A DNA stretch of 64,000 nucleotides from Escherichia coli (GCF_041886205.1 NZ_CP169029.1); one strand, 5' to 3'. Positions 3,001-22,213 are shown, numbered from the stretch's first letter. Notes: generated by a model not told the origin, from the sequence alone. Numbers and translations: made by a program.

Positions 3001-4578
3001 GTGACGGCAACGCTGGACAATAACAGTAGTAGTAAGGTTGACGTGAATGTGGCAAATGGCAAACTCGAGTTAACATCATCGAAGCCAGAAACCACGGTCC
3101 ATAACAGTGAGGGTATTACGCTTACCGCAACGGCGAGAAATGCGCGGGATGAATTGATGCCTGGGCAAATTATCACCTTTAGCGTAACGCCTGAAGGTGC
3201 AACGCTAAGCAATACAGGGGAAGTCCTTACTGACCAGTCTGGTCAGGCCAAAGTGACGCTGACCAGTGACAAAGTGAATGTCTATACCGTTACGGCCACA
3301 ATGGGCAAAGATGTTCCCGTTCAGAGCCAGGTAACGGTTGCGGTTAAGGCAGATGCTAAAACGGCACATGTTGTAAGCGTCGTGGCCTCTCCTGACACCA
3401 TAACCGCCGACGGCGTTGATAGCAGCACCGTCACGTCACGAGTAGAAGATGATTACGGATTCCCGGTTGAAGGTGTCGATGTTAGTTATGCCTTAGACAC
3501 CAAAGGTCGCCCGGTTGTTAATATTCCAACTACGCGTACCGATCAATCCGGGCAAGTCACGGCGACAATAACCAGTACATTGGCAGAAACCTTAACAGTC
3601 AATGTGCAAGTTCCTGGTACAGCCAACCAATCCGCAGCTATTACCTTGATTGCCGGCACGGCGGATGAAAGTAAGTCAATTTTGAAATCCGACGTTGGCA
3701 CTCTGATGGCTGACTACCAGCATAGCGCGAAACTTACGCTAACATTGCAAGACAAGTACGGTAACCCGATAGTGACGTCTGATCATCTGGAATTTGTCCA
3801 GTCAGGTCCCTTCGTGAACTTTCTCAAGTTGAGCGATATTGATTACAGCCAAAGAAATTATGGCGAGTACACCGTGACTGTCACTGGCGGAAAAGAGGGA
3901 ACAGCGACTCTCATTCCCATGCTGAACGGGGTTCATCAGGCAAACTTAAGCGTATCGCTGAATCTCATCCGCTCGATAAAAGAAATGTCCGGTCATGTCA
4001 CTGCAAACAACCATACCTTCTCCACGGCTAAATTCCCGAGCGAAGGTTTTGCAGGAGCGTATTACACACTCAACAATGATAACTTTGAAGCGGGTAAAAC
4101 CGTTGATGATTATATGTTTTCAAGTTCACAGAGTTGGGTGTCTGTCGATGCGTCAGGTAAGGTTTCTTTCACAAATATCGGCGATCAAACGTCAGTCACA
4201 ATAAGCGCTGTTCCCCGACAAGGAGGTACAACCTACCAGACCTTAATTAAGCTGAAAGGCTGGTGGGTGAATAATGGAAATCAAACCAATATCTGGCTAA
4301 CTGCCAATGCGCTCTGTCATGCGAAAAATGATGGATATACTCTTCCTGGCATCACACATTTGACGTCTGGCGAAAACAAACGCACGCAGGGATCGCTATA
4401 TGGTGAATGGGGGAACGTTGCAGCGTTTTCCAGTAATTCGCCATTTACACCAGGTGCTTACTGGACAAATGAATCTGATGATTACAATAGGCACTACTAT
4501 GTGCAGATGCTAACGGGTATGACCGGAAGCGACGCTGATTCCAGCCCCCAACTGACCGCCTGCCGTAAATCACTTTAA
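1..4578 (+). CDS. Inverse autotransporter adhesin (intimin/invasin family), 5-prime partial: end of beta-barrel, about 9-10 Big_1 Ig-like repeats, Cys-containing C-terminal domain
   Basis: Frame is open from base 1 (no stop before the listed TTG at 58). N-terminal stretch AEYWRDYLK...ERPANGWDLR...KLVYEQYYGDEVALF resembles the intimin/invasin barrel end; recurring about 100-aa units with motifs such as STLTATVTD..NPL..V.F; stop at 4576-4578. Confidence 0.8.
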   Translation, partial: LFSQHTLHRTDDRTQINTGLGWRHFTPSWMSGINLFFDHDLSRYHSRAGLGAEYWRDYLKLSSNAYIGLTGWRSAPELDNDFEARPANGWDLRAEGWLPAWPQLGGKLVYEQYYGDEVALFDKNDRQSNPHAITAGLNYTPFPLLTLSAEQRQGKQGENDTRFAVDLTWQPSSSMQKQLNPDEVAGRRSLVGSRYDLIDRNNNIVLEYRKKELIRLSLLDPVKGKSGEIKPLVSSLQTKYALKGYNIEAAALEAAGGKVSTSGKDITVTLPGYRFTNTPETDNTWSIDVTAEDVKGNLSHHEQSMVVIQAPTLSQKDSLLSVNPLTVAADKKSTTTLTVTAHDSDGTPVPGLALQTRSEGVQDITLSDWTDNGDGSYTQMLTAGTTSGSVTLTPQINGESAVKESIVVNIVPVVSSRDHSSITIDNVSYYAGDDIKVRVELKDDSNQPVAYQKEELVKAVTVENSKPGATIVWHEELPGVYTANYPAHKQGTALRAQLSLHNWNAPLQSHIYNIEANQNKARVATLSATNNDVYADKKTFNTLTINVTDESDNPLTNHQVTFKNEKGSAEFVEPPQQNTDAYGVATINMVSQVAEENTISATLPNGFSQRIIAKFVSDSSTPKFKQLVADPDTIIAGNSQGSTLTATVTDFHNNPLKDMKVNFVAPGGSQLDNTTATTDQYGIVRVHLTSSKAGSYSVDASLEADKNIHQSVTITVVPNREQSVMTLNAGSGSAVANNTNTVTLTASVKDVYGHPLPDEDVKFTLPASMTGNFTLSSETARTDANGDAMVTLRGTKAGEFTVTATLTRNNTIAHQQVSFIGDTNSAQLQPLTASLNTIVAGNSTGSTLTATILDAYQNPLKDQLVTFQSNDVTLSGTEVTTNTLGQATVTMTSNIAGQHNVVVSRKAQASDNKTFSLSVLPDESSAKVISITGAEKTITVGENITLRILVQDAFNNVIAGQRVRLSAQPTAHITIGDTAYTDNNGYAYVHLISTQSGVYQVTATLDNNSSSKVDVNVANGKLELTSSKPETTVHNSEGITLTATARNARDELMPGQIITFSVTPEGATLSNTGEVLTDQSGQAKVTLTSDKVNVYTVTATMGKDVPVQSQVTVAVKADAKTAHVVSVVASPDTITADGVDSSTVTSRVEDDYGFPVEGVDVSYALDTKGRPVVNIPTTRTDQSGQVTATITSTLAETLTVNVQVPGTANQSAAITLIAGTADESKSILKSDVGTLMADYQHSAKLTLTLQDKYGNPIVTSDHLEFVQSGPFVNFLKLSDIDYSQRNYGEYTVTVTGGKEGTATLIPMLNGVHQANLSVSLNLIRSIKEMSGHVTANNHTFSTAKFPSEGFAGAYYTLNNDNFEAGKTVDDYMFSSSQSWVSVDASGKVSFTNIGDQTSVTISAVPRQGGTTYQTLIKLKGWWVNNGNQTNIWLTANALCHAKNDGYTLPGITHLTSGENKRTQGSLYGEWGNVAAFSSNSPFTPGAYWTNESDDYNRHYYVQMLTGMTGSDADSSPQLTACRKSL

Positions 4579-4708: not shown

Positions 4709-5286
4709 TTTTGTGGCCCAGCCGACATGAACGGCCACTCAAGAAACTCAACAGCAACCGTTGATGTCAGCCAGACCCCGTTTTCCGCTTGCCAGAAAGG
4801 GATGCCTCGTTTCGCCATTTCCTGTGCTTTGACGGTTAAGATAACCGGCGATCCGTGTCTTGCTCCCACTTTGCGTGCCGTTGCTTCATCAGCAGAGAGA
4901 TGTACGTAATGACGCTCCCCTGCAATCAGCCCCTGTTTTTTTATCTCGTCAAGGAAACGGCTTGCCGTACCGTGGTAGAGAAACTGTGGCGGTGTTTTTT
5001 CGGCAAAGGAAATGGCGACCTGCGAAGTCGAATGCCCCTGAACCGCGCGGATGCACCTACCATCACTGGAATAACTAAAACGCTTTTTATCGCTGGTGGC
5101 AACCACAGTATCCAGCAATGCACGGGTTAACCGCTTGCCCGCTTTTTGGGCACAGAGTATAAGCTTATCGATATCCGCCCATCCTTCACGGTCAAGTACG
5201 ATACCAATCGCCTCCGGTTTGTGTCGGAGGACAAAACTTAAAAACTTGCTCGTATCCGCCAGCTCTTTTTCGTTGTACTTTGCCAT
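4702..5286 (-). CDS. kptA: RNA 2'-phosphotransferase KptA (Tpt1 family)
   Basis: Translation [28 protein letters not shown]...[16 protein letters not shown] matches the KptA/Tpt1 family; start chosen at internal Met of the 228-aa ORF. Confidence 0.85.
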
Positions 5287-5523
5287 CTCGTTTTCGTCCC
5301 TGGATTTTCTGTTTTTATTTACTGATGTCATTGTCACTTGGTTTATGAATTTTCTGCAACTCAATCCTGCGCAGAGCCTTTTCCACACAGCGTAATTTTT
5401 CCGCTATGCAAAAAACGCATAGCCAGAAACATACTTGCATTTTCCCCATACCCACATGGCTGATAAGGTTTTTCCGCTCCAGGAATTTTCCTGGCTCAAG
5501 CAACACACAAACACAAAAAAACA

Positions 5524-6219
5524 ATGGGGATTGTTATGACACAACAAGGGGATGCTGTAGCCGGGGAGCTGGCGACAGAAAAAGTGGGCATTAAAGGGTA
5601 TCTGGCTTTTTTTCTCACCATAATCTTTTTTTCCGGTGTTTTTTCCGGGACAGACAGTTGGTGGCGCGTTTTTGATTTTTCCGTTCTGAACGGATCGTTT
5701 GGGCAACTGCCTGGTGCGAATGGAGCCACCACCTCATTTCGCGGGGCGGGTGGCGCGGGGGCTAAAGATGGCTTTCTCTTTGCGCTGGAGCTGGCACCGT
5801 CAGTCATTCTCTCTCTGGGGATTATTTCAATTACCGATGGTCTTGGTGGATTACGCGCCGCGCAGCAGTTAATGACACCTGTGCTAAAACCGTTGTTGGG
5901 CATTCCAGGGATCTGCTCGCTGGCGCTGATCGCTAACCTGCAAAACACGGATGCCGCCGCCGGTATGACCAAAGAGCTGGCGCAGGAAGGTGAAATTACC
6001 GAACGCGATAAAGTGATTTTCGCCGCATATCAAACCAGCGGTAGCGCCATCATCACCAACTACTTCTCTTCCGGCGTCGCGGTGTTTGCCTTTCTGGGCA
6101 CGTCCGTAATCGTACCTTTAGCCGTCATCCTGGTGTTTAAATTTGTCGGAGCCAACATTTTGCGCGTCTGGCTTAACTTCGAAGAACGTCGCAACCCAAC
6201 GCAAGGAGCGCAAGCATGA
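5524..6219 (+). CDS. yjiH: Inner membrane protein YjiH (SpmA-like nucleoside-recognition-domain protein)
   Basis: Hydrophobic 231-aa ORF; position and order yjiH-yjiG-iadA as I recall for K-12; 4-bp overlap with the next gene. Confidence 0.75.
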   Translation: MGIVMTQQGDAVAGELATEKVGIKGYLAFFLTIIFFSGVFSGTDSWWRVFDFSVLNGSFGQLPGANGATTSFRGAGGAGAKDGFLFALELAPSVILSLGIISITDGLGGLRAAQQLMTPVLKPLLGIPGICSLALIANLQNTDAAAGMTKELAQEGEITERDKVIFAAYQTSGSAIITNYFSSGVAVFAFLGTSVIVPLAVILVFKFVGANILRVWLNFEERRNPTQGAQA

Positions 6220-6677
6220 CAACTCAGGTCCGCAAAAATGTCATGGATATGTTTATCGATGGTGCGCGCCGTGGCTTTACTATCGCCACGACCAACCTGC
6301 TGCCAAACGTGGTGATGGCGTTTGTCATCATTCAGGCGCTGAAAATTACCGGCCTGCTCGACTGGGTGGGGCATATCTGTGAACCCGTAATGGCGCTGTG
6401 GGGATTACCCGGTGAAGCGGCAACCGTCCTTTTAGCCGCATTAATGAGTATGGGCGGCGCAGTCGGTGTTGCCGCCAGTCTGGCGACCGCCGGCGCATTA
6501 ACCGGTCACGATGTCACCGTTTTACTGCCCGCGATGTATTTAATGGGCAACCCGGTGCAAAATGTCGGTCGCTGCCTGGGGACAGCCGAAGTGAATGCCA
6601 AATATTACCCGCATATCATTACGGTCTGCGTGATTAACGCATTGCTGTCGATCTGGGTTATGCAGCTTATTGTTTAA
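6216..6677 (+). CDS. yjiG: Inner membrane protein YjiG (SpmB-like)
   Basis: 153-aa membrane ORF translationally coupled to yjiH and followed by iadA. Confidence 0.75.
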   Translation: MTTQVRKNVMDMFIDGARRGFTIATTNLLPNVVMAFVIIQALKITGLLDWVGHICEPVMALWGLPGEAATVLLAALMSMGGAVGVAASLATAGALTGHDVTVLLPAMYLMGNPVQNVGRCLGTAEVNAKYYPHIITVCVINALLSIWVMQLIV

Positions 6678-6689
6678 CAAGGAGTTACC

Positions 6690-7862
6690 ATGATTGATTA
6701 TACCGCAGCCGGTTTTACCCTGCTGCAGGGAGCGCATTTGTATGCGCCGGAAGATCGGGGAATTTGCGATGTCCTCGTCGCTAACGGCAAAATTATCGCC
6801 GTTGCCAGCAATATCCCTTCTGACATTGTACCGGACTGCACGGTTGTCGATCTCAGCGGGCAGATCCTCTGTCCTGGTTTTATTGATCAACACGTCCATT
6901 TGATTGGTGGTGGCGGTGAAGCAGGTCCCACGACGCGCACGCCAGAAGTGGCGCTAAGTCGCCTGACGGAAGCGGGCGTCACGTCAGTGGTTGGTCTGCT
7001 GGGCACCGACTCTATCTCTCGCCACCCGGAATCCCTGCTCGCCAAGACCCGTGCGCTCAATGAAGAAGGCATCAGCGCCTGGATGCTGACCGGCGCTTAT
7101 CATGTCCCTTCCCGCACCATTACAGGTTCCGTGGAAAAAGACGTGGCGATTATCGATCGTGTGATTGGCGTGAAATGCGCCATCTCTGATCACCGTTCTG
7201 CCGCACCGGACGTTTATCACCTGGCTAATATGGCGGCGGAATCCCGCGTTGGCGGTTTGCTCGGCGGTAAACCTGGCGTCACCGTGTTCCACATGGGCGA
7301 CAGCAAAAAGGCGTTACAGCCTGTCTATGACCTGCTGGAAAACTGCGATGTGCCGATCAGCAAGTTGCTGCCGACCCACGTTAACCGCAACGTTCCGTTG
7401 TTTGAGCAGGCGCTGGAGTTCGCGCGCAAAGGCGGCACTATCGATATCACCAGCAGCATTGACGAACCGGTCGCCCCTGCCGAAGGTATTGCGCGCGCCG
7501 TTCAGGCGGGTATTCCGCTGGCACGCGTCACCCTCAGCTCCGACGGCAACGGTAGCCAGCCGTTCTTCGATGACGAAGGGAATTTAACCCATATCGGTGT
7601 TGCCGGTTTTGAAACGTTGCTGGAAACCGTGCAGGTGCTGGTCAAAGACTATGATTTCAGTATCAGCGATGCCCTGCGCCCGCTCACCAGTAGCGTAGCC
7701 GGTTTCCTTAACCTGACCGGGAAAGGCGAAATTCTGCCAGGCAATGATGCTGACTTGCTGGTCATGACGCCAGAACTGCGCATTGAGCAGGTATACGCTC
7801 GCGGCAAACTGATGGTCAAAGACGGCAAAGCCTGCGTGAAAGGAACGTTTGAAACGGCTTAA
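6690..7862 (+). CDS. iadA: Isoaspartyl dipeptidase (amidohydrolase superfamily)
   Basis: 390 aa; metal-binding HxH motif near N-terminus (FIDQHVHLIGGGGE); RBS aggag upstream; K-12 synteny. Confidence 0.85.
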   Translation: MIDYTAAGFTLLQGAHLYAPEDRGICDVLVANGKIIAVASNIPSDIVPDCTVVDLSGQILCPGFIDQHVHLIGGGGEAGPTTRTPEVALSRLTEAGVTSVVGLLGTDSISRHPESLLAKTRALNEEGISAWMLTGAYHVPSRTITGSVEKDVAIIDRVIGVKCAISDHRSAAPDVYHLANMAAESRVGGLLGGKPGVTVFHMGDSKKALQPVYDLLENCDVPISKLLPTHVNRNVPLFEQALEFARKGGTIDITSSIDEPVAPAEGIARAVQAGIPLARVTLSSDGNGSQPFFDDEGNLTHIGVAGFETLLETVQVLVKDYDFSISDALRPLTSSVAGFLNLTGKGEILPGNDADLLVMTPELRIEQVYARGKLMVKDGKACVKGTFETA

Positions 7863-7926: not shown

Positions 7927-8763
7927 ATGGATGACTGTGGTGCGATTTTGCATAATATTGAAACCAAATGGCTTTATGATTTTCTGACCCTGGAAAAATG
8001 CCGCAATTTTTCCCAGGCGGCAGTCAGTCGCAACGTCTCGCAACCGGCATTCAGCCGCCGCATCCGTGCGCTGGAACAGGCGATTGGTGTTGAATTGTTT
8101 AACCGCCAGGTAACGCCGCTGCAACTCTCAGAACAAGGGAAAATCTTCCATTCGCAGATCCGCCATCTGTTGCAACAGTTAGAGAGCAATCTGGCAGAGC
8201 TGCGTGGCGGCAGCGATTACGCGCAACGAAAAATCAAGATAGCCGCTGCACACTCTCTTTCCCTCGGGCTGTTACCGTCCATTATCAGCCAGATGCCGCC
8301 GCTCTTTACCTGGGCAATTGAAGCTATTGATGTCGATGAAGCGGTCGATAAACTGCGTGAAGGGCAAAGTGACTGTATTTTTTCCTTTCACGACGAAGAT
8401 TTGCTGGAAGCGCCGTTTGACCACATTCGCTTATTTGAATCTCAATTGTTCCCTGTCTGCGCCAGTGACGAACACGGAGAAGCACTTTTTAACCTCGCGC
8501 AGCCACACTTTCCGTTACTGAATTACAGCCGCAACTCCTACATGGGGCGATTGATTAATCGCACCCTGACGCGCCACAGTGAGTTAAGTTTCAGCACCTT
8601 TTTTGTCTCTTCGATGAGCGAGCTTTTAAAGCAGGTTGCCCTCGACGGCTGTGGGATTGCCTGGCTGCCGGAGTACGCCATCCAACAAGAAATTCGCAGC
8701 GGGAAGCTCGTTGTACTGAATCGGGACGAACTGGTGATCCCGATTCTGGCCTATGCATACTGA
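7927..8763 (+). CDS. hypT: LysR-family regulator HypT (YjiE), apparently truncated by an in-frame TGA; 24 further sense codons continue to a second stop at 8836-8838
   Basis: N-terminal HTH typical of LysR regulators; ORF ends ...ILAYAY then TGA, followed in frame by [24 protein letters not shown] and a stop. Confidence 0.75.
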   Translation: MDDCGAILHNIETKWLYDFLTLEKCRNFSQAAVSRNVSQPAFSRRIRALEQAIGVELFNRQVTPLQLSEQGKIFHSQIRHLLQQLESNLAELRGGSDYAQRKIKIAAAHSLSLGLLPSIISQMPPLFTWAIEAIDVDEAVDKLREGQSDCIFSFHDEDLLEAPFDHIRLFESQLFPVCASDEHGEALFNLAQPHFPLLNYSRNSYMGRLINRTLTRHSELSFSTFFVSSMSELLKQVALDGCGIAWLPEYAIQQEIRSGKLVVLNRDELVIPILAYAY

Positions 8764-8830
8764 ATGAATACCCGCATGAATCCAGTTGCCGAACGCTTCT
8801 GGCGTGAACTGCGCGAGCTGGAGATTGTAC

Positions 8831-9223
8831 TTAGCTGACATTCTCCAGCGTCGCACTACGCCAACCGCCATTATCCCAGACCAGATCAAACGTTAGCGGT
8901 TCATCGTCGTGGTACAGCATTATCTCAAGGCTGATCGCCAGCGTGTGACTGTACGCTTCTTTCAGATTGACCTGCAACGCCGCAATCCGTGGCTCATGAA
9001 ATAACAGTGCAGAACGCAGCTGACGGCAATACCAGCTCTGGAGATGTTTGTCGCTCTGGTTATGCACTTGCCACTCGGGCATGCCTGAAACAAGTAATGA
9101 CGGTAATGCCGAAAGAGGAGAATTAAAAAGAGTGAGGAGATCGCTGCATACCGATTTACGCAGCAATGACGTTTTATTGCCTGAAATTTTAGGTAAAACA
9201 GCCTGAAGTGATTGGCGCATCAT
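8831..9223 (-). CDS. iraD: Anti-adapter protein IraD (YjiD)
   Basis: About 130-aa ORF convergent with hypT; sequence [11 protein letters not shown]... as recalled for IraD; K-12 synteny. Confidence 0.75.
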
Positions 9224-14864: not shown

Positions 14865-14972
14865 ACATAACGTGTCGCCCAAAATAACAATGGATTAACC
14901 TACTCCCCCATTGCATAAGTTGTGACCGACACAACAAAACTGATGTTGTTGCAAAGATTGCTATTTAGTTTT

Positions 14973-14987
14973 GGTATAAAAGGTATA
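14973..14987. promoter_or_regulatory. NanR-operator-like GGTATA direct repeats upstream of nanM
   Basis: ggtataaaaggtata about 50 bp upstream of the nanM start; NanR is known to bind GGTATA repeats. Confidence 0.45.
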
Positions 14988-15036
14988 CAGGCACATGGTG
15001 CGACATTTGAATTCCAGCGATCAGGAGTAATTCACA

Positions 15037-16143
15037 ATGAATAAAACAATAACGGCGCTTGCTATCATGATGGCTTCATTTGCCGCAAACGCGTCTGTAT
15101 TACCGGAAACTCCTGTGCCATTTAAAAGTGGTACCGGAGCAATTGATAACGACACTGTCTACATTGGTTTAGGTAGCACAGGTACGGCATGGTACAAGCT
15201 GGATACACAGGCCAAAGATAAAAAATGGACAGCGTTAGCTGCATTCCCTGGCGGACCAAGAGATCAAGCAACCTCGGCATTTATTGATGGCAATCTGTAT
15301 GTGTTTGGCGGCATTGGCAAAAACAGCGAGGGCTTGACTCAGGTATTTAATGACGTACACAAATACAACCCCAAAACCAATAGTTGGGTTAAATTGATGT
15401 CGCACGCACCGATGGGCATGGCGGGTCATGTAACTTTTGTACACAACGGCAAGGCTTATGTTACTGGCGGTGTTAACCAGAATATCTTCAATGGCTATTT
15501 TGAAGATCTCAACGAGGCTGGAAAAGATTCAACCGCTGTAGATAAAATCAACGCTCACTATTTTGACAAAAAAGCAGAAGATTATTTCTTCAATAAGTTT
15601 CTGTTGTCTTTTGATCCCTCAACACAGCAATGGAGTTACGCTGGCGAATCCCCCTGGTACGGAACGGCTGGTGCGGCGGTTGTGAATAAAGGTGATAAAG
15701 CCTGGCTTATTAATGGCGAAGCCAAACCAGGATTGCGAACGGATGCCGTATTTGAACTTGATTTCACCGGTAATAATTTAAAATGGAATAAGCTTGCTCC
15801 CGTCTCATCACCAGATGGCGTCGCTGGCGGTTTTGCGGGGATAAGCAATGATTCTCTTATATTTGCCGGAGGGGCCGGATTCAAAGGTTCACGAGAAAAT
15901 TACCAGAACGGTAAGAACTATGCGCATGAAGGCCTGAAAAAATCATATAGCGCTGATGTTCATCTTTGGCATAACGGGAAATGGGATAAATCGGGCGAAT
16001 TGTCGCAAGGTCGGGCCTACGGAGTATCATTGCCCTGGAATAATAGTTTATTAATTATTGGCGGTGAAACTGCAGGCGGCAAAGCGGTGACGGATTCAGT
16101 TTTGATCTCTGTGAAGGATAATAAAGTCACAGTACAAAACTAA
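15037..16143 (+). CDS. nanM: N-acetylneuraminate epimerase (Kelch-repeat sialic acid mutarotase), signal peptide present
   Basis: 368 aa with N-terminal signal peptide (MNKTITALAIMMASFAANA) and repeated Kelch-like GG motifs; RBS aggag. Confidence 0.85.
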   Translation: MNKTITALAIMMASFAANASVLPETPVPFKSGTGAIDNDTVYIGLGSTGTAWYKLDTQAKDKKWTALAAFPGGPRDQATSAFIDGNLYVFGGIGKNSEGLTQVFNDVHKYNPKTNSWVKLMSHAPMGMAGHVTFVHNGKAYVTGGVNQNIFNGYFEDLNEAGKDSTAVDKINAHYFDKKAEDYFFNKFLLSFDPSTQQWSYAGESPWYGTAGAAVVNKGDKAWLINGEAKPGLRTDAVFELDFTGNNLKWNKLAPVSSPDGVAGGFAGISNDSLIFAGGAGFKGSRENYQNGKNYAHEGLKKSYSADVHLWHNGKWDKSGELSQGRAYGVSLPWNNSLLIIGGETAGGKAVTDSVLISVKDNKVTVQN

Positions 16144-16207
16144 CGCTTCAGGGCCCCAGTAAAGGGGCCCTGCTATCAATTTATCATATCAATTACGCGA
16201 AAATTAT

Positions 16208-17188
16208 ATGGACGCAATAATATCGCCCGATTATTACTATGTTCTTACCGTTGCTGGTCAGTCTAATGCCATGGCGTATGGCGAAGGACTGCCATTACCG
16301 GACAGGGAAGATGCGCCTCATCCCAGAATTAAACAATTAGCAAGATTTGCGCATACGCATCCCGGAGGCCCGTCATGTCACTTTAACGACATTATTCCAC
16401 TGACTCACTGCCCACACGATGTTCAGGATATGCAGGGTTATCACCATCCTCTGGCAACGAATCATCAAACACAGTACGGCACCGTTGGCCAGGCACTGCA
16501 TATTGCACGGAAATTACTGCCCTTCATTCCTGATAATGCAGGGGTTCTCATCGTTCCATGTTGTCGTGGCGGCTCGGCTTTTATCGCAGGCAGCGAAGGG
16601 ACATATTCAGAACGGCACGGAGCCAGCCATGATGCTTGTCGTTGGGGAACGGATACTCCGCTATACCAGGATTTAGTCAGCAGAACGCGAGCCGCACTGG
16701 CAAAAAATCCGCAGAACAAATTCCTCGGCGTATGCTGGATGCAAGGCGAATTTGACTTAATGACCTGTGACTACTCGTCACACCCTCAACACTTTAATCA
16801 TATGGTTGAAGCCTTTCGTAGGGATCTAAAACAATACCATTCTCAGCTTAATAAAATTACTGACGCGCCGTGGTTTTGCGGCGATACCACCTGGTACTGG
16901 AAAGAAAATTTCCCTCATGCGTATGAAGCTATTTATGGCAATTATCAAAATAATGTTTTAGCTAATATTATTTTCGTCGACTTCCAGCAACAAGGTGAAA
17001 GAGGACTGACGAACGCGCCTGATGAAGACCCGGACGATTTAATCATGGGATATTACGGTTCAGCGTACCGGTCACCGGAGAACTGGACGACGGCACTGCG
17101 AAGCAGTCATTTCAGCGCGGCAGCCCGTCGGGGGATTATTTCTGACAGGTTTGTAGAAGCAATTTTGCAGTTTTGGCGCGAAAGGTGA
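16208..17188 (+). CDS. nanS: 9-O-acetyl-N-acetylneuraminate esterase (SGNH/DUF303 family)
   Basis: 326 aa beginning ...YVLTVAGQSNAMAYGEG (GQSN catalytic-serine motif); directly downstream of nanM. Confidence 0.8.
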   Translation: MDAIISPDYYYVLTVAGQSNAMAYGEGLPLPDREDAPHPRIKQLARFAHTHPGGPSCHFNDIIPLTHCPHDVQDMQGYHHPLATNHQTQYGTVGQALHIARKLLPFIPDNAGVLIVPCCRGGSAFIAGSEGTYSERHGASHDACRWGTDTPLYQDLVSRTRAALAKNPQNKFLGVCWMQGEFDLMTCDYSSHPQHFNHMVEAFRRDLKQYHSQLNKITDAPWFCGDTTWYWKENFPHAYEAIYGNYQNNVLANIIFVDFQQQGERGLTNAPDEDPDDLIMGYYGSAYRSPENWTTALRSSHFSAAARRGIISDRFVEAILQFWRER

Positions 17189-17195
17189 GCGTTCA

Positions 17196-17846
17196 TTAAT
17201 TTGATTTATTCGCATCCATTAGCGCTTTTAACTGCTCCGGCGTAAACGGTGGTTTGCGTCGGTGCAGCATCGCATGGCAATTAGGGCACACAGGAAGCAA
17301 ATCATTAACTGGATCCAGCTGGTAATCCTCTTTAATGGCTGAAAGCGGCACCAGGTGATGCACATGGATAAAGCCTTCAGCGATATCACCATAGATCTTC
17401 ACCAGATCAACGCCGCATACGTTGCATTGGCATCCATGATGTTCGACCGCTTTATCTCGGGCCTTTTTATCGCGTTCATAGCGGTTTACTGTCACCTTTA
17501 TCGCCGCACCTTCAACGTAGGTCCCCTGCGACGGCAGCTCATCCGGGAACAGAACGTCGGCTATGGGAGCCGCAGCGGCTTTATCCTGATGAATATGAAA
17601 TCCCTGCTCTATGAGTAGCTTGACACATTTAGATTTTATTCCGCCGGTGAAATCCGCAGGGGTAAATTGCGTCCCCGTCATCAATGTCGCTGCGATGCCA
17701 GCAATCGCCTTCGAGGGGTAACGTCGGCCATGATATTCAATTTCATACAACCGTGCAGGCTGGAACTGATGAGTTTCTCCCGCATCCCATAAATGAATAG
17801 CTTCGATGATATACCGCCGCGGAAGATGATCGGGGAGTTTATTCAT
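17196..17846 (-). CDS. HNH endonuclease, McrA-like (candidate modification-dependent restriction/defence nuclease)
   Basis: 216 aa; C-terminal HNH/zinc-finger signature CQCNVCG...HVHHLVPLS...NDLLPVCPNCH; N-terminal roughly 120-aa domain of unknown type; convergent with nanS, next to IS1. Confidence 0.7.
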   Translation of the reverse strand: MNKLPDHLPRRYIIEAIHLWDAGETHQFQPARLYEIEYHGRRYPSKAIAGIAATLMTGTQFTPADFTGGIKSKCVKLLIEQGFHIHQDKAAAAPIADVLFPDELPSQGTYVEGAAIKVTVNRYERDKKARDKAVEHHGCQCNVCGVDLVKIYGDIAEGFIHVHHLVPLSAIKEDYQLDPVNDLLPVCPNCHAMLHRRKPPFTPEQLKALMDANKSN

Positions 17847-17992
17847 AGAGAATGTCCTTATACGTTCTCAGAACAAGCAGCAAAAAAACAAATGAGATCA
17901 AAGTAATATATCTTCACTTGCAGGCTTGAACAGCAGAAAATTTGCGAGCATGATCGCAATTATTTCACTGCCAGGGAGGTAATGACTCCAAC

Positions 17993-18496
17993 TTATTGAT
18001 AGTGTTTTATGTTCAGATAATGCCCGATGACTTTGTCATGCAGCTCCACCGATTTTGAGAACGACAGCGACTTCCGTCCCAGCCGTGCCAGGTGCTGTCT
18101 CAGATTCAGGTTATGCCGCTCAATTCGCTGCGTATATCGCTTGCTGATTACGTGCAGCTTTCCCTTCAGGCGGGATTCATACAGCGGCCAGCCATCCGTC
18201 ATCCATATCACCACGTCAAAGGGTGACAGCAGGCTCATAAGACGCCCCAGCGTCGCCATAGTGCGTTCACCGAATACGTGCGCAACAACCGTCTTCCGGA
18301 GCCTGTCATACGCGTAAAACAGCCAGCGCTGGCGCGATTTAGCCCCGACATAGCCCCACTGTTCGTCCATTTCCGCGCAGACGATGACGTCACTGCCCGG
18401 CTGTATGCGCGAGGTTACCGACTGCGGCCTGAGTTTTTTAAATGGCGGAAAATCGTGTTGAGGCCAACGCCCATAATGCGGGCGGTTGCCCGGCAT
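17993..18496 (-). CDS. insB: IS1 transposase InsB reading frame (expressed as InsAB' by -1 frameshift)
   Basis: 167-aa [19 protein letters not shown]...DGWPLYE... overlapping the insA 3-prime end in the -1 frame, as in IS1. Confidence 0.9.
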
Positions 18497-18690
18497 CCAA
18501 CGCCATTCATGGCCATATCAATGATTTTCTGGTGCGTACCGGGTTGAGAAGCGGTGTAAGTGAACTGCAGTTGCCATGTTTTACGGCAGTGAGAGCAGAG
18601 ATAGCGCTGATGTCCGGCGGTGCTTTTGCCGTTACGCACCACCCCGTCAGTAGCTGAACAGGAGGGACAGCTGATAGAAACAGAAGCCAC
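18415..18690 (-). CDS. insA: IS1 protein InsA
   Basis: 91-aa [46 protein letters not shown]..., the IS1 InsA zinc-finger protein. Confidence 0.95.
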
Positions 18691-18745
18691 TGGAGCACCT
18701 CAAAAACACCATCATACACTAAATCAGTAAGTTGGCAGCATCACC

Positions 18746-19057
18746 CAGCAAACGAACCTGGATGATTTGCCGGATAAAGCCAGCATCATTGACGCGTTTT
18801 TTACCTTTGCTCAACGCGAACAGCAACGTGAAGCAGAAGCCTTGATCAAAGAAGAAAATCTCAATGAAGAGGCGGCGAAACGCTATATTCGCACGTCTTT
18901 AAAACGCGAATACGCCACCGAAAATGGCACGGAATTAAACGAGACATTGCCAAAACTCAGTCCGTTAAATCCGCAATATAAGACGAAAAAACAGACGGTT
19001 TTCCAGAAGATCGTCGCGTTTATTGAGAAGTTTAAAGGTGTAGGCGGGCAGATATAA
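18746..19057 (+). pseudogene. 3-prime remnant of a larger gene truncated at its 5-prime end by IS1; encoded tail is charged and helical
   Basis: Reading frame is open from the IS1 boundary with no start context (first listed codon is TTG); peptide ...[37 protein letters not shown]...[15 protein letters not shown]. Confidence 0.6.
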
Positions 19058-19240
19058 TGTATTAATCCGAACCTGATCTGGCAGATAGCTGTCAGATCAG
19101 GACTGAGCTAATACAAATTAATGTCGAACCGAAAATACCAACGCCTGTACCAACATTTTTCGTTTGCGATGGGTTGGAATTGGTTAGCCCTGAGAGAGTT
19201 AAAATAGCGAGAAAGATAGGTAACTAACGGATTTCAGACA

Positions 19241-19268
19241 CAAAAAAAGCCGCTCTTGAGCGGCTCGA
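19241..19268 (-). terminator. Rho-independent terminator of leuX
   Basis: On the minus strand gagccgctcaagagcggc hairpin followed by a T-run immediately 3-prime of the tRNA. Confidence 0.7.
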
Positions 19269-19281
19269 TTTGCATACGGTG

Positions 19282-19366
19282 TGGTGCCGAAGGCCGGACT
19301 CGAACCGGCACGTATTTCTACGGTTGATTTTGAATCAACTGCGTCTACCGATTTCGCCACTTCGGC
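19282..19366 (-). tRNA. leuX: tRNA-Leu (CAA), leuX
   Basis: Reverse complement reads GCCGAAGTGGCGAAATCGGTAGACGCAGTTGATTCAAAATCAACCGTAGAAATACGTGCCGGTTCGAGTCCGGCCTTCGGCACCA with CAA anticodon loop and encoded CCA end. Confidence 0.95.
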
Positions 19367-19561
19367 ACTGAAGAGGTATGCGGAAAACGTTGTGGATTAT
19401 ACCTGTCGCACGCCACCATGCAAGCGCCAGCTTGCTCGCACCTCGCTAAGTGCTGAAATTTTCAGCATTGCATACAGCGATGTGTAACCTTTGTCACACT
19501 CCAGGCACCCCGCCCTGCCATGCTCTACACTTCCCAGACCACACCAGAGAAGGACCAAAAA

Positions 19562-20581
19562 ATGTCGATGATAAGAAGCTATGCCGCAAAAGAAGCGGGC
19601 GGCGAACTGGAAGTTTATGAGTACGATCCCGGTGAGCTGAAGCCACAAGATATTGAAGTGCAGGTGGATTACTGCGGGATCTGCCATTCCGATCTGTCGA
19701 TGATCGATAACGAATGGGGATTTTCACAATATCCGCTGGTTGCCGGGCATGAGGTGATTGGGCGCGTGGTGGCACTCGGGAGCGCCGCGCAGGATAAAGG
19801 TTTGCAGGTCGGTCAGCGTGTCGGGATTGGCTGGACGGCGCGTAGCTGTGGTCACTGCGACGCCTGTATTAGCGGTAATCAGATCAACTGCGAGCAAGGT
19901 GCGGTGCCAACAATTATGAATCGCGGCGGTTTTGCCGAGAAGTTGCGTGCGGACTGGCAATGGGTGATTCCACTGCCAGAAAATATTGATATCGAGTCCG
20001 CCGGGCCGCTGTTGTGCGGCGGTATCACGGTCTTTAAACCACTGTTGATGCACCATATCACTGCTACCAGCCGCGTTGGGGTAATTGGTATTGGCGGGCT
20101 GGGGCATATCGCTATAAAACTTCTGCACGCAATGGGATGCGAGGTGACAGCCTTTAGTTCGAATCCGGCGAAAGAGCAGGAAGTGCTGGCGATGGGTGCC
20201 GATAAAGTGGTGAATAGCCGCGATCCGCAGGCACTCAAAGCACTGGCGGGGCAGTTTGATCTCATTATCAATACTGTGAACGTCAGCCTCGACTGGCAGC
20301 CTTATTTTGAGGCGCTGACCTATGGCGGTAATTTCCATACGGTCGGTGCGGTTCTCACGCCGCTGTCTGTTCCGGCCTTTACGTTAATTGCGGGCGATCG
20401 CAGCGTCTCTGGTTCTGCTACCGGCACGCCTTATGAGCTGCGTAAGCTGATGCGTTTTGCCGCCCGCAGCAAGGTTGCGCCGACTACCGAACTGTTCCCG
20501 ATGTCGAAAATTAACGACGCCATTCAGCATGTACGCGATGGTAAAGCGCGCTACCGAGTGGTCCTGAAAGCCGACTTCTGA
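19562..20581 (+). CDS. ahr: NADPH-dependent aldehyde reductase Ahr (YjgB), zinc-dependent alcohol dehydrogenase family
   Basis: Translation from [21 protein letters not shown]...; Zn-ADH motifs (GICHSD, GHEVIG) and Rossmann GIGGLGH. Confidence 0.9.
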
Positions 20582-20710
20582 TCCCTTTGCCGGGTGCCTG
20601 TCGCCCGGCACTTAAATCTCTTTGGAAGGCATCTCGCAATCTGCTTAATTTAGCGGTGAAGAGTGCATAGCCGTTGCCTATACTCCAGGCAGGAAACTGG
20701 AGGAAATCTC

Positions 20711-22213
20711 ATGAGTGAACCCCTGTTAATTGCCCGCACGCCGGACACAGAACTGTTTTTACTGCCGGGAATGGCTAACCGTCACGGGCTGATTACTGGC
20801 GCAACGGGGACGGGTAAAACTGTCACGCTGCAAAAACTGGCGGAGTCTCTATCGGAAATCGGTGTTCCGGTGTTTATGGCCGATGTGAAAGGCGATCTGA
20901 CCGGCGTCGCGCAGGCAGGAACGGCGTCGGAAAAACTGCTCGCAAGGCTTAAAAATATCGGCGTCAATGACTGGCAACCGCATGCCAATCCGGTGGTGGT
21001 GTGGGATATCTTTGGCGAGAAAGGCCATCCGGTGCGGGCGACGGTTTCGGATCTGGGGCCGCTGTTGCTGGCGCGGCTGTTGAATCTCAACGATGTGCAA
21101 TCTGGCGTGCTGAATATCATCTTCCGCATTGCTGACGATCAGGGGCTGTTACTGCTCGACTTTAAAGATTTGCGGGCGATTACCCAGTACATCGGCGATA
21201 ACGCCAAATCTTTCCAGAATCAGTACGGTAATATCAGTAGCGCATCGGTTGGTGCCATCCAGCGCGGATTACTGTCGCTGGAACAGCAAGGCGCAGCACA
21301 CTTCTTTGGTGAGCCGATGCTGGATATCAAAGACTGGATGCGCACCGATGCCAACGGTAAAGGCGTTATCAATATCCTCAGCGCCGAGAAACTTTATCAG
21401 ATGCCGAAACTGTACGCCGCCAGCCTGCTGTGGATGCTTTCAGAGTTGTATGAACAATTGCCGGAAGCGGGCGATCTGGAGAAACCAAAACTGGTGTTTT
21501 TCTTCGACGAGGCACATCTGCTGTTTAACGATGCACCGCAGGTACTGCTGGATAAGATTGAGCAGGTGATAAGGCTTATTCGCTCAAAAGGCGTGGGCGT
21601 CTGGTTCGTTTCGCAAAACCCGTCTGATATTCCGGATAATGTGCTCGGCCAGCTCGGTAATCGCGTTCAGCACGCTTTGCGGGCTTTTACGCCCAAAGAT
21701 CAGAAAGCAGTGAAGGCAGCGGCGCAAACCATGCGGGCCAATCCGGCATTTGATACCGAAAAGGCAATCCAGGAACTGGGGACCGGCGAGGCGTTAATCT
21801 CGTTTCTCGATGCAAAAGGAAGTCCTTCTGTGGTGGAACGGGCGATGGTGATTGCGCCTTGTTCGCGGATGGGACCGGTGACGGAAGATGAGCGCAATGG
21901 CTTGATTAATCACTCTCCGGTGTATGGCAAGTACGAGGATGACGTGGACCGGGAATCCGCCTATGAGATGTTGCAAAAAGGCTTTCAGGCCAGTACCGAG
22001 CAGCAAAATAATCCTCCCGCGAAAGGGAAAGAGGTGGCGGTGGATGACGGTATTCTTGGTGGATTGAAGGATATTTTGTTTGGCACTACCGGACCACGCG
22101 GCGGGAAGAAAGATGGTGTGGTGCAAACAATGGCGAAAAGCGCCGCCCGCCAGGTGACGAATCAGATTGTACGCGGGATGTTGGGGAGTTTGCTGGGGGG
22201 GAGAAGAAGGTAA
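20711..22213 (+). CDS. yjgR: P-loop NTPase YjgR (DUF853 family)
   Basis: Translation from [11 protein letters not shown]...; Walker A GATGTGKT; about 500 aa. Confidence 0.8.

Follow-up and report, generated by a model that had tools for sequence, protein, structure and literature searches.

An IS1 copy without a target-site duplication, the probable scar of a deletion in the leuX-adjacent defence island of an Escherichia coli strain

The window, i.e., the whole stretch of 64,000 nucleotides of E. coli DNA that was analysed (GCF_041886205.1, NZ_CP169029.1), contains a short interval of about 2 kb (17192 to 19123) between nanS and leuX. It is made up of an HNH endonuclease gene, a complete IS1 and the 3' end of a type I restriction gene, hsdR (Table 1).

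Table 1. Features of the nanM-leuX region, with positions counted from the first letter of the window
Feature	Positions	Strand	Remarks
nanM	15037-16143		Left of nanS
nanS	16208-17188	plus	Sialate O-acetylesterase; belongs to the backbone and borders the island
HNH endonuclease gene	17196-17846	minus	Intact, 216 aa; what survives of the island at its nanS end; not in K-12
Left flanking 9-mer, tgccaggga	17969-17977	plus	Abuts IRR
Complete IS1	17978-18745	minus	768 bp; recognized by terminal repeats and Pfam frames
IRR (right inverted repeat, insB-distal end)	17978-18000	plus	23 bp, GGTAATGACTCCAACTTATTGAT; on the nanS/HNH side
insB' frame	17993-18496	minus	DDE_Tnp_IS1, 131/131 profile positions
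insA	18415-18690	minus	91 aa, GTG start; Pfam Zn_ribbon_InsA and HTH_Tnp_IS1
Programmed -1 frameshift motif (A6C)	18433-18441	minus	TTAAAAAAC; position 305 from IRL
IRL (left inverted repeat, insA-proximal end)	18723-18745	minus	23 bp, GGTGATGCTGCCAACTTACTGAT; touches the hsdR fragment
Right flanking 9-mer, cagcaaacg	18746-18754	plus	Abuts IRL
hsdR' stump	18746-19057	plus	312-nt 3' end (103 codons and stop) of an EcoR124-family type I R subunit gene
Residual island-specific DNA	19058-19123		K-12 homology restarts at 19124, 158 bp from the leuX 3' end
leuX	19282-19366	minus	tRNA-Leu(CAA); ahr and yjgR lie beyond it

The element is a member of the IS1 family (IS1A/IS1B type), with which it shares its length, the imperfect repeats of about 23 bp starting GGT(A/G)ATG, insA and insB', the A6C frameshift and a DDE transposase. 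Its identity to copies annotated as IS1A or IS1B elsewhere is 99.1 to 99.5%, and the InsAB' transposase, reconstructed from the sequence by joining insA and insB' through the -1 shift, is 232 aa long. The pattern of the IS1 ends has just two matches in the 64-kb window (0 expected from shuffles); this is the single IS1 there, and no second copy with flanks pairing either 9-mer was found. The usual target duplication of IS1 is 8 to 9 bp (PMC12428005), and in this respect the window copy departs from the family: the two flanking 9-mers are equal at only 2/9 positions, and re-examination of the flanks for an 8-to-9-bp or degenerate direct repeat revealed none. Such a duplication belongs to a simple insertion event and not to the element itself, and its absence here would follow from the deletion of one of the original flanks.

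On the leuX side, the hsdR fragment begins exactly at the end of IS1, covers positions 169 to 260 of the 260 in the Pfam profile EcoR124_C and matches intact alleles of WAT, M18 and many other strains at 100% identity. The intact hsdR genes that match the right flank at 100% adjoin leuX in many strains. The first-pass annotation, made from the sequence alone, had described both terminal repeats together with intact insA and insB frames, unequal 9-bp flanks and an open reading frame cut at the IS1 boundary on the leuX side, and all of these hold. On the nanS side, the HNH gene is paired in strain DAX4 with a full-length 290-aa "phosphorothioated DNA-binding restriction endonuclease". The defence island is variable except at its nanS-proximal end, which this pair forms; both members obtain weak PADLOC scores as type IV methyl-directed restriction enzymes or HNH.

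We compared the locus with 5,426 complete RefSeq E. coli genomes, a collection that does not include the source genome itself. The arrangement of the window (flank, IS1, flank) was found in none of them, and the only two records covering at least 80% of a 4-kb query were both of different structure. There was likewise no genome among the 5,426 in which the two flanks abut without IS1, or in which the left junction (CACTGCCAGGGAGGTAATGACTCC) appears as one uninterrupted match. Either flank alone was common in the collection, running on into further DNA. Mapping at the nucleotide level to four genomes (WAT, M18, ET201 and 6EVA) located both breakpoints. The left flank continues in these relatives from tgccaggga into TATCAATGGCTTCC, which starts the remnant of a gene for a restriction endonuclease that binds phosphorothioate DNA, with the ATG 5 bp beyond the breakpoint, and on the right GGTCGATTTTATT stands directly before cagcaaacg, within an hsdR that is intact there. 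In place of IS1 there are 8,660 bp in WAT, 8,755 bp in 6EVA, 9,943 bp in ET201 (with an extra IS3 in hsdS) and 47,412 bp in M18 (with a Mu-like prophage inside hsdR). Both breakpoints are the IS1 termini to the nucleotide, and the mapping against the four reference genomes revealed no microhomology between them. No IS1 was found within the island in any of the intact-island relatives inspected. The prophage of M18, of about 38.7 kb (3056 to 41780 of the extracted locus) and with Mu transposase, Gam, Mor, Mom/Com and tail genes, represents a further, independent inactivation of the leuX-linked hsdR.

The content of the missing segment can be read directly from the relatives. It comprises, in order, the 150-nt endonuclease remnant, a small ORF, AbiEii, AbiEi (which carries the annotation DUF6088 in the relatives), a DUF4942 protein, HsdM, HsdS and the start of HsdR, of which the first 2.8 kb or so of the gene are lost. 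PADLOC identified the lost genes as AbiEi/AbiEii and as the type I components MTase_I, Specificity_I and REase_I. The truncated gene belonged to an EcoR124 (type IC) type I restriction-modification (R-M) system; in the intact relatives hsdM, hsdS and hsdR stand together and hsdR carries the EcoR124_C domain. Since only the last 103 HsdR codons survive, the R-M system of the window is non-functional. An integrase is missing both from the 2-kb remnant of the window and from the island where it is intact (WAT, 6EVA and ET201), and a search of the far side of the island for repeats of at least 14 nt of the leuX 3' end found none. This is not, then, a tRNA island of the integrase type, such as intB/KpLE2 of K-12. 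Identity of the flanks to intact alleles is 100% over 478 bp on the left (M18) and over 555 to 750 bp on the right, from which a recent deletion can be deduced.

The source strain belongs to a divergent and sparsely sampled lineage. Its closest relative in the collection is ET201 (isolated from a frog), with 99.3 to 99.4% identity to the window backbone over 10 kb on each side, followed by 6EVA with 97.8 to 97.9%, and most E. coli strains are about 97.2% identical in the backbone genes (valS, pepA, lptFG, uxuAB). The window, ET201 and 6EVA have in common an unusual uxuA-nanM junction, and the latter two keep an intact island. At this junction, 95 bp (14901 to 14995) replace the 12.5 kb from nanC-fimB through fimH-gntP of K-12 (4538807 to 4551313), no IS being found there, and, as ET201 and 6EVA share the arrangement, the lineage is one without type 1 fimbriae. 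Divergence from ET201 is uneven along the window. Outside a stretch from approximately 15,500 to 20,750 the two are almost the same (0 mismatches per 250 bp beyond approximately 20,750), within it the difference is about 2%, and the bases nearest IS1 are 100% M18/WAT-like. This pattern suggests that homologous recombination may have exchanged the region of the island, or the very allele that carries the deletion.

The first-pass annotation had taken the IS1 without a duplication as the mark of an IS1-mediated deletion, by adjacent deletion or by recombination between two IS1 copies, which would have reduced the large leuX island of K-12 to about 2 kb, and had proposed a comparison with strains carrying a complete island. 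The core of this reading is supported by breakpoints that fall exactly at the IS1 termini and by relatives that have 8,660 to 47,412 bp between the same flanks, and the deletion does explain the size of the remnant. The part that does not stand is K-12 as the starting point. Its leuX-nanS interval of 40.1 kb consists of intB, IS2/IS4/IS30/IS911, nanXY, fec, IS1F, yjh, sgc and topAI, with neither hsdRMS nor AbiE in it, and only nanM-nanS (14996 to 17191) and leuX-ahr (from 19124) are shared with the window. The K-12 island (intB through yjhR) occupies the same leuX-nanS slot and also holds an IS1 copy; however, that copy (IS1F) is only 90% identical and is located elsewhere in the island, and the gene content is unrelated, for which reason we rejected K-12 as the ancestral state. 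On sequence comparison, the ancestor most likely carried an integrase-less R-M/AbiE segment of about 10 kb, as ET201, 6EVA and WAT do, and the loss would have taken about 8.7 kb of it. If the ancestor was instead M18-like, with the Mu prophage, the loss would amount to 47 kb, and the size of the ancestral island is uncertain to that extent.

IS1-bounded loss of DNA is a common and recurrent event in the leuX-adjacent defence island of E. coli. Among the genomes inspected, there are at least seven distinct IS1 junctions in this island without a target-site duplication, their breakpoint distances and orientations being biased by the design of the search. In W444 (4787 to 5554 of the extracted locus), the restriction endonuclease remnant is joined through IS1 to a truncated integrase; in SC516, IS1 is followed by a truncated brxA (BrxA'), in 2017.20.01CC by a sensor kinase and in FG92-1 by a truncated hypothetical gene and then phage-like genes (Icd-like, AlpA). 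YPE10 has IS1 next to a truncated hsdS in the same island type (3080 to 3847), and in DAX4 (6001 to 6768) the element lies between a truncated McrB gene and 855 nt of hsdR, with a separate simple insertion in mcrC, the only one of those listed that has a duplication. The leuX island is also eroded differently among Shigella and enteroinvasive E. coli (EIEC) lineages (PMC4374849). There the same interval (uxuA/gntP to leuX-yjgB/ahr) has suffered lineage-specific losses with IS1 replacing segments, e.g., from fimB to fimC/D in S. sonnei 53G (PMC4374849). The cargo is different, fim, fec and yjhATS being affected in Shigella/EIEC (PMC4374849) and a type I R-M system plus AbiE here, where the whole lineage already lacked the fim cluster.

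The simplest history for the window is a recent deletion ending at the IS1 ends, given that the truncated stump is identical to intact alleles. The opposite polarity, with the short arrangement ancestral and the island inserted in the other genomes, was discarded on the same identity of the stump to intact hsdR 3' ends. We infer that the IS1 transposase was the agent, and regard the element as probably the scar of an adjacent deletion that started from hsdR and took away some 8.7 kb of a defence island without integrase. In this model, the first step would have been an IS1 insertion in the 3' part of hsdR, at GATTTTATT^CAGCAAACG, apparently a preferred target (see below), with IRL towards the hsdR 3' end. 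The IRR of the resident copy would then have attacked tgccaggga^TATCAATGG, 8.66 kb away on the same molecule, in a classical IS1 adjacent deletion (intramolecular or abortive transposition). The DNA between the two sites would thereby have been lost, and with it the left copy of the 9-bp duplication made at the first insertion, leaving one intact IS1 with unrelated flanks and a 103-codon hsdR stump, with the type I R-M system and AbiE gone. The intermediate was sought as its reciprocal junction (hsdR upstream sequence, CAGCAAACG and IRR; TTTTATTCAGCAAACGGGTAATGACTCC) and was present in 0 of the 5,426 genomes; six two-piece matches all corresponded to IS1 downstream of an intact hsdR and are irrelevant.

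Classical IS1 deletions were reportedly described in gal by Reif and Saedler in 1975. The nearest modern counterparts are the IS1-adjacent deletions of the nfsB region in clinical E. coli, of 11 to 66 kb, which start exactly at IRR, have variable far ends, have been observed experimentally and are ascribed to abortive transposition (PMC10569738). The window resembles them in a deletion that starts at an IS1 terminus (mostly IRR there, and IRR here under the hsdR-first model), in a variable far end within coding sequence, in a size of kilobases to tens of kilobases and in an IS1 that is kept intact. It differs in that the event was observed there from a known parent (PMC10569738), whereas here it is deduced from genome comparison, and in that the genes lost are those of defence systems and not nfsB. 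In the long-term evolution experiment (LTEE), IS copies without a duplication are explained by adjacent deletion or by IS x IS recombination, and all 14 of the 14 IS-linked deletions were multistep adjacent deletions, with the IS already at the site (PMC11708052). The likeness of the window to these Lenski lines lies in the missing duplication and the missing DNA, which lead to the same two readings. The element there was IS150, however, and earlier time points proved the multistep course (PMC11708052).

Adjacent deletion, recombination between IS1 copies and a one-step event cannot be separated by the sequence of the locus alone. RecA-dependent recombination between two IS1 copies in direct orientation, inserted independently and each with a 9-bp duplication of its own, one just upstream of the endonuclease remnant and the other in hsdR, would excise the 8.7 kb, leave a hybrid IS1 and yield exactly the structure seen, an intact element with unrelated flanks collinear with those of the relatives. 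It is a documented source of missing duplications (PMC11708052), and IS1 is drawn to this region: the leuX island of DAX4 has two IS1 copies, and at least five more copies are located in other genomes 188 to 567 bp from the equivalent of the left breakpoint and in the same orientation. However, those five nearby copies all lack a duplication and so mark deletions, not simple insertions, and neither an IS1 at the left site nor the reciprocal right junction is found in any of the 5,426 genomes, which are not direct ancestors. Recombination would also need two insertions and a crossover, against one insertion and one transposition. Internal polymorphisms of the IS1 form a patchy IS1A/IS1B mosaic and not the clean two-parent chimera expected of a crossover, although they are useless as a crossover marker, since IS1 copies at one fixed locus (ykgJ, see below) also differ between genomes. 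On balance, we regard recombination between IS1 copies as rather unlikely.

Under the preferred reading, an adjacent deletion, the hsdR-first order is favored by the recurrent use of the hsdR site and by the loss of the IRR side in both cases of deletion known at it, and it is solely from this coincidence that we infer the order of the two steps. The right junction of the window (IRL-cagcaaacg) was recovered as a single uninterrupted match in seven genomes, at another locus, between ykgJ and an IS5. There, IS1 lies at the same nucleotide of hsdR and in the same orientation, again without a duplication (atcactgac/cagcaaacg) and with the IRR side lost. The hsdR fragment at the ykgJ locus is, nevertheless, of another allele, 92% identical to that of the window (22 mismatches over 290 bp, none of them before position 24), and has its own 100% identical intact counterparts, e.g., in Y5, where hsdM-hsdS-hsdR is part of a larger island. 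As each fragment is identical to its own intact alleles, the two junctions would have arisen recently and separately. In LF4-1, a third allele bears a simple IS1 insertion with a 9-bp duplication (gacaaagcc), 27 bp downstream and in the same orientation. A search centred on the window's own junction thus counts three IS1 events within 36 bp, two of them at one nucleotide and all with IRL towards the hsdR 3' end, which points to a preferred IS1 target. IS1 targets may resemble the IS1 ends or an IHF site; at neither target did we find homology to the IS1 ends above background or an IHF consensus. Among metagenome contigs, there were 0 matches with an IS1 end within 30 bp upstream of a conserved hsdR anchor. 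We tentatively propose, as a possibility, that the 3' region of EcoR124-family hsdR may be a nucleotide-precise and orientation-specific IS1 hot spot (GATTTTATT^CAGCAAACG plus the site 27 bp downstream), hit independently in at least three diverged alleles at different chromosomal loci and repeatedly seeding IRR-side deletions that remove entire R-M and defence islands.

The count of events depends on whether the IS1/hsdR' junctions of the window and of the ykgJ genomes go back to one event in an ancestor, passed on between hsdR alleles by gene conversion or other recombination. They do coincide in nucleotide, in orientation and in the first 23 bp of the flank. Past that point, however, the 22 differences begin, each fragment is 100% identical to intact alleles of its own locus (leuX-linked for the window, Y5-type for ykgJ), conversion would have to have stopped no more than 23 bp from the IS, and a search of plasmids, a possible vehicle, did not recover the junction. 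A common origin is therefore doubtful in our opinion. The ykgJ-locus IS1 itself (8353 to 9120 in the first of the seven extracted loci) resembles IS1A in three genomes and IS1B in the other four, with differences at up to about 10 internal positions, and this variation at a fixed site would imply gene conversion among IS1 copies. In LF4-1, a second IS1 (6551 to 7318 of the extracted locus), 430 bp downstream of the first and also without a duplication (caatttgca/cagttaagc), joins the hsdR 3' end to pgaD, so that an R-M island or its remnant seems to have been rearranged next to the pga operon.

A deletion in one step, in which an incoming IS1 joins its ends to two targets 8.7 kb apart with no resident copy and no duplication, would agree with the lack of IS1 in the island of the relatives and of the intermediate junction in the 5,426 genomes, and events of this kind, an IS plus a deletion without duplication, have been proposed for IS5 and IS481 (PMC11708052). 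The missing intermediates are, however, weak evidence when the nearest relative is still about 0.7% divergent; the mechanism is not known to operate in IS1, and in the LTEE, the one large data set which that study analysed, 14/14 deletions were multistep (PMC11708052), all of which makes a single step very improbable. An assembly artefact, in which two IS1 copies were collapsed and the deletion is unreal, is hardly credible, for although IS1 is multicopy (a median of about 10 matching places per E. coli genome) and repeats are classic sites of misjoining, the flanks are collinear, in the same orientation and at the same locus as in the relatives, the window is one contiguous 64-kb sequence, and similar IS1 junctions without duplication occur at the leuX locus in many independently finished genomes.

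IS1-mediated deletion is a phenomenon long known, to which the case of the window adds nothing new in principle. For the source strain, the deletion accounts for there being only about 2 kb between nanS and leuX, and it leaves the strain without the type I R-M and AbiE abortive-infection systems, both kept by its nearest relatives, a loss that would be expected to lower its barrier against phages and foreign DNA. The comparison further shows that K-12, although a natural choice, is not the reference state of the leuX locus. Only the apparent hot spot for IS1 in hsdR genes of the EcoR124 family is out of the ordinary; if it is true, IS1 would provide a recurrent, semi-programmed route to the loss of restriction in E. 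coli.
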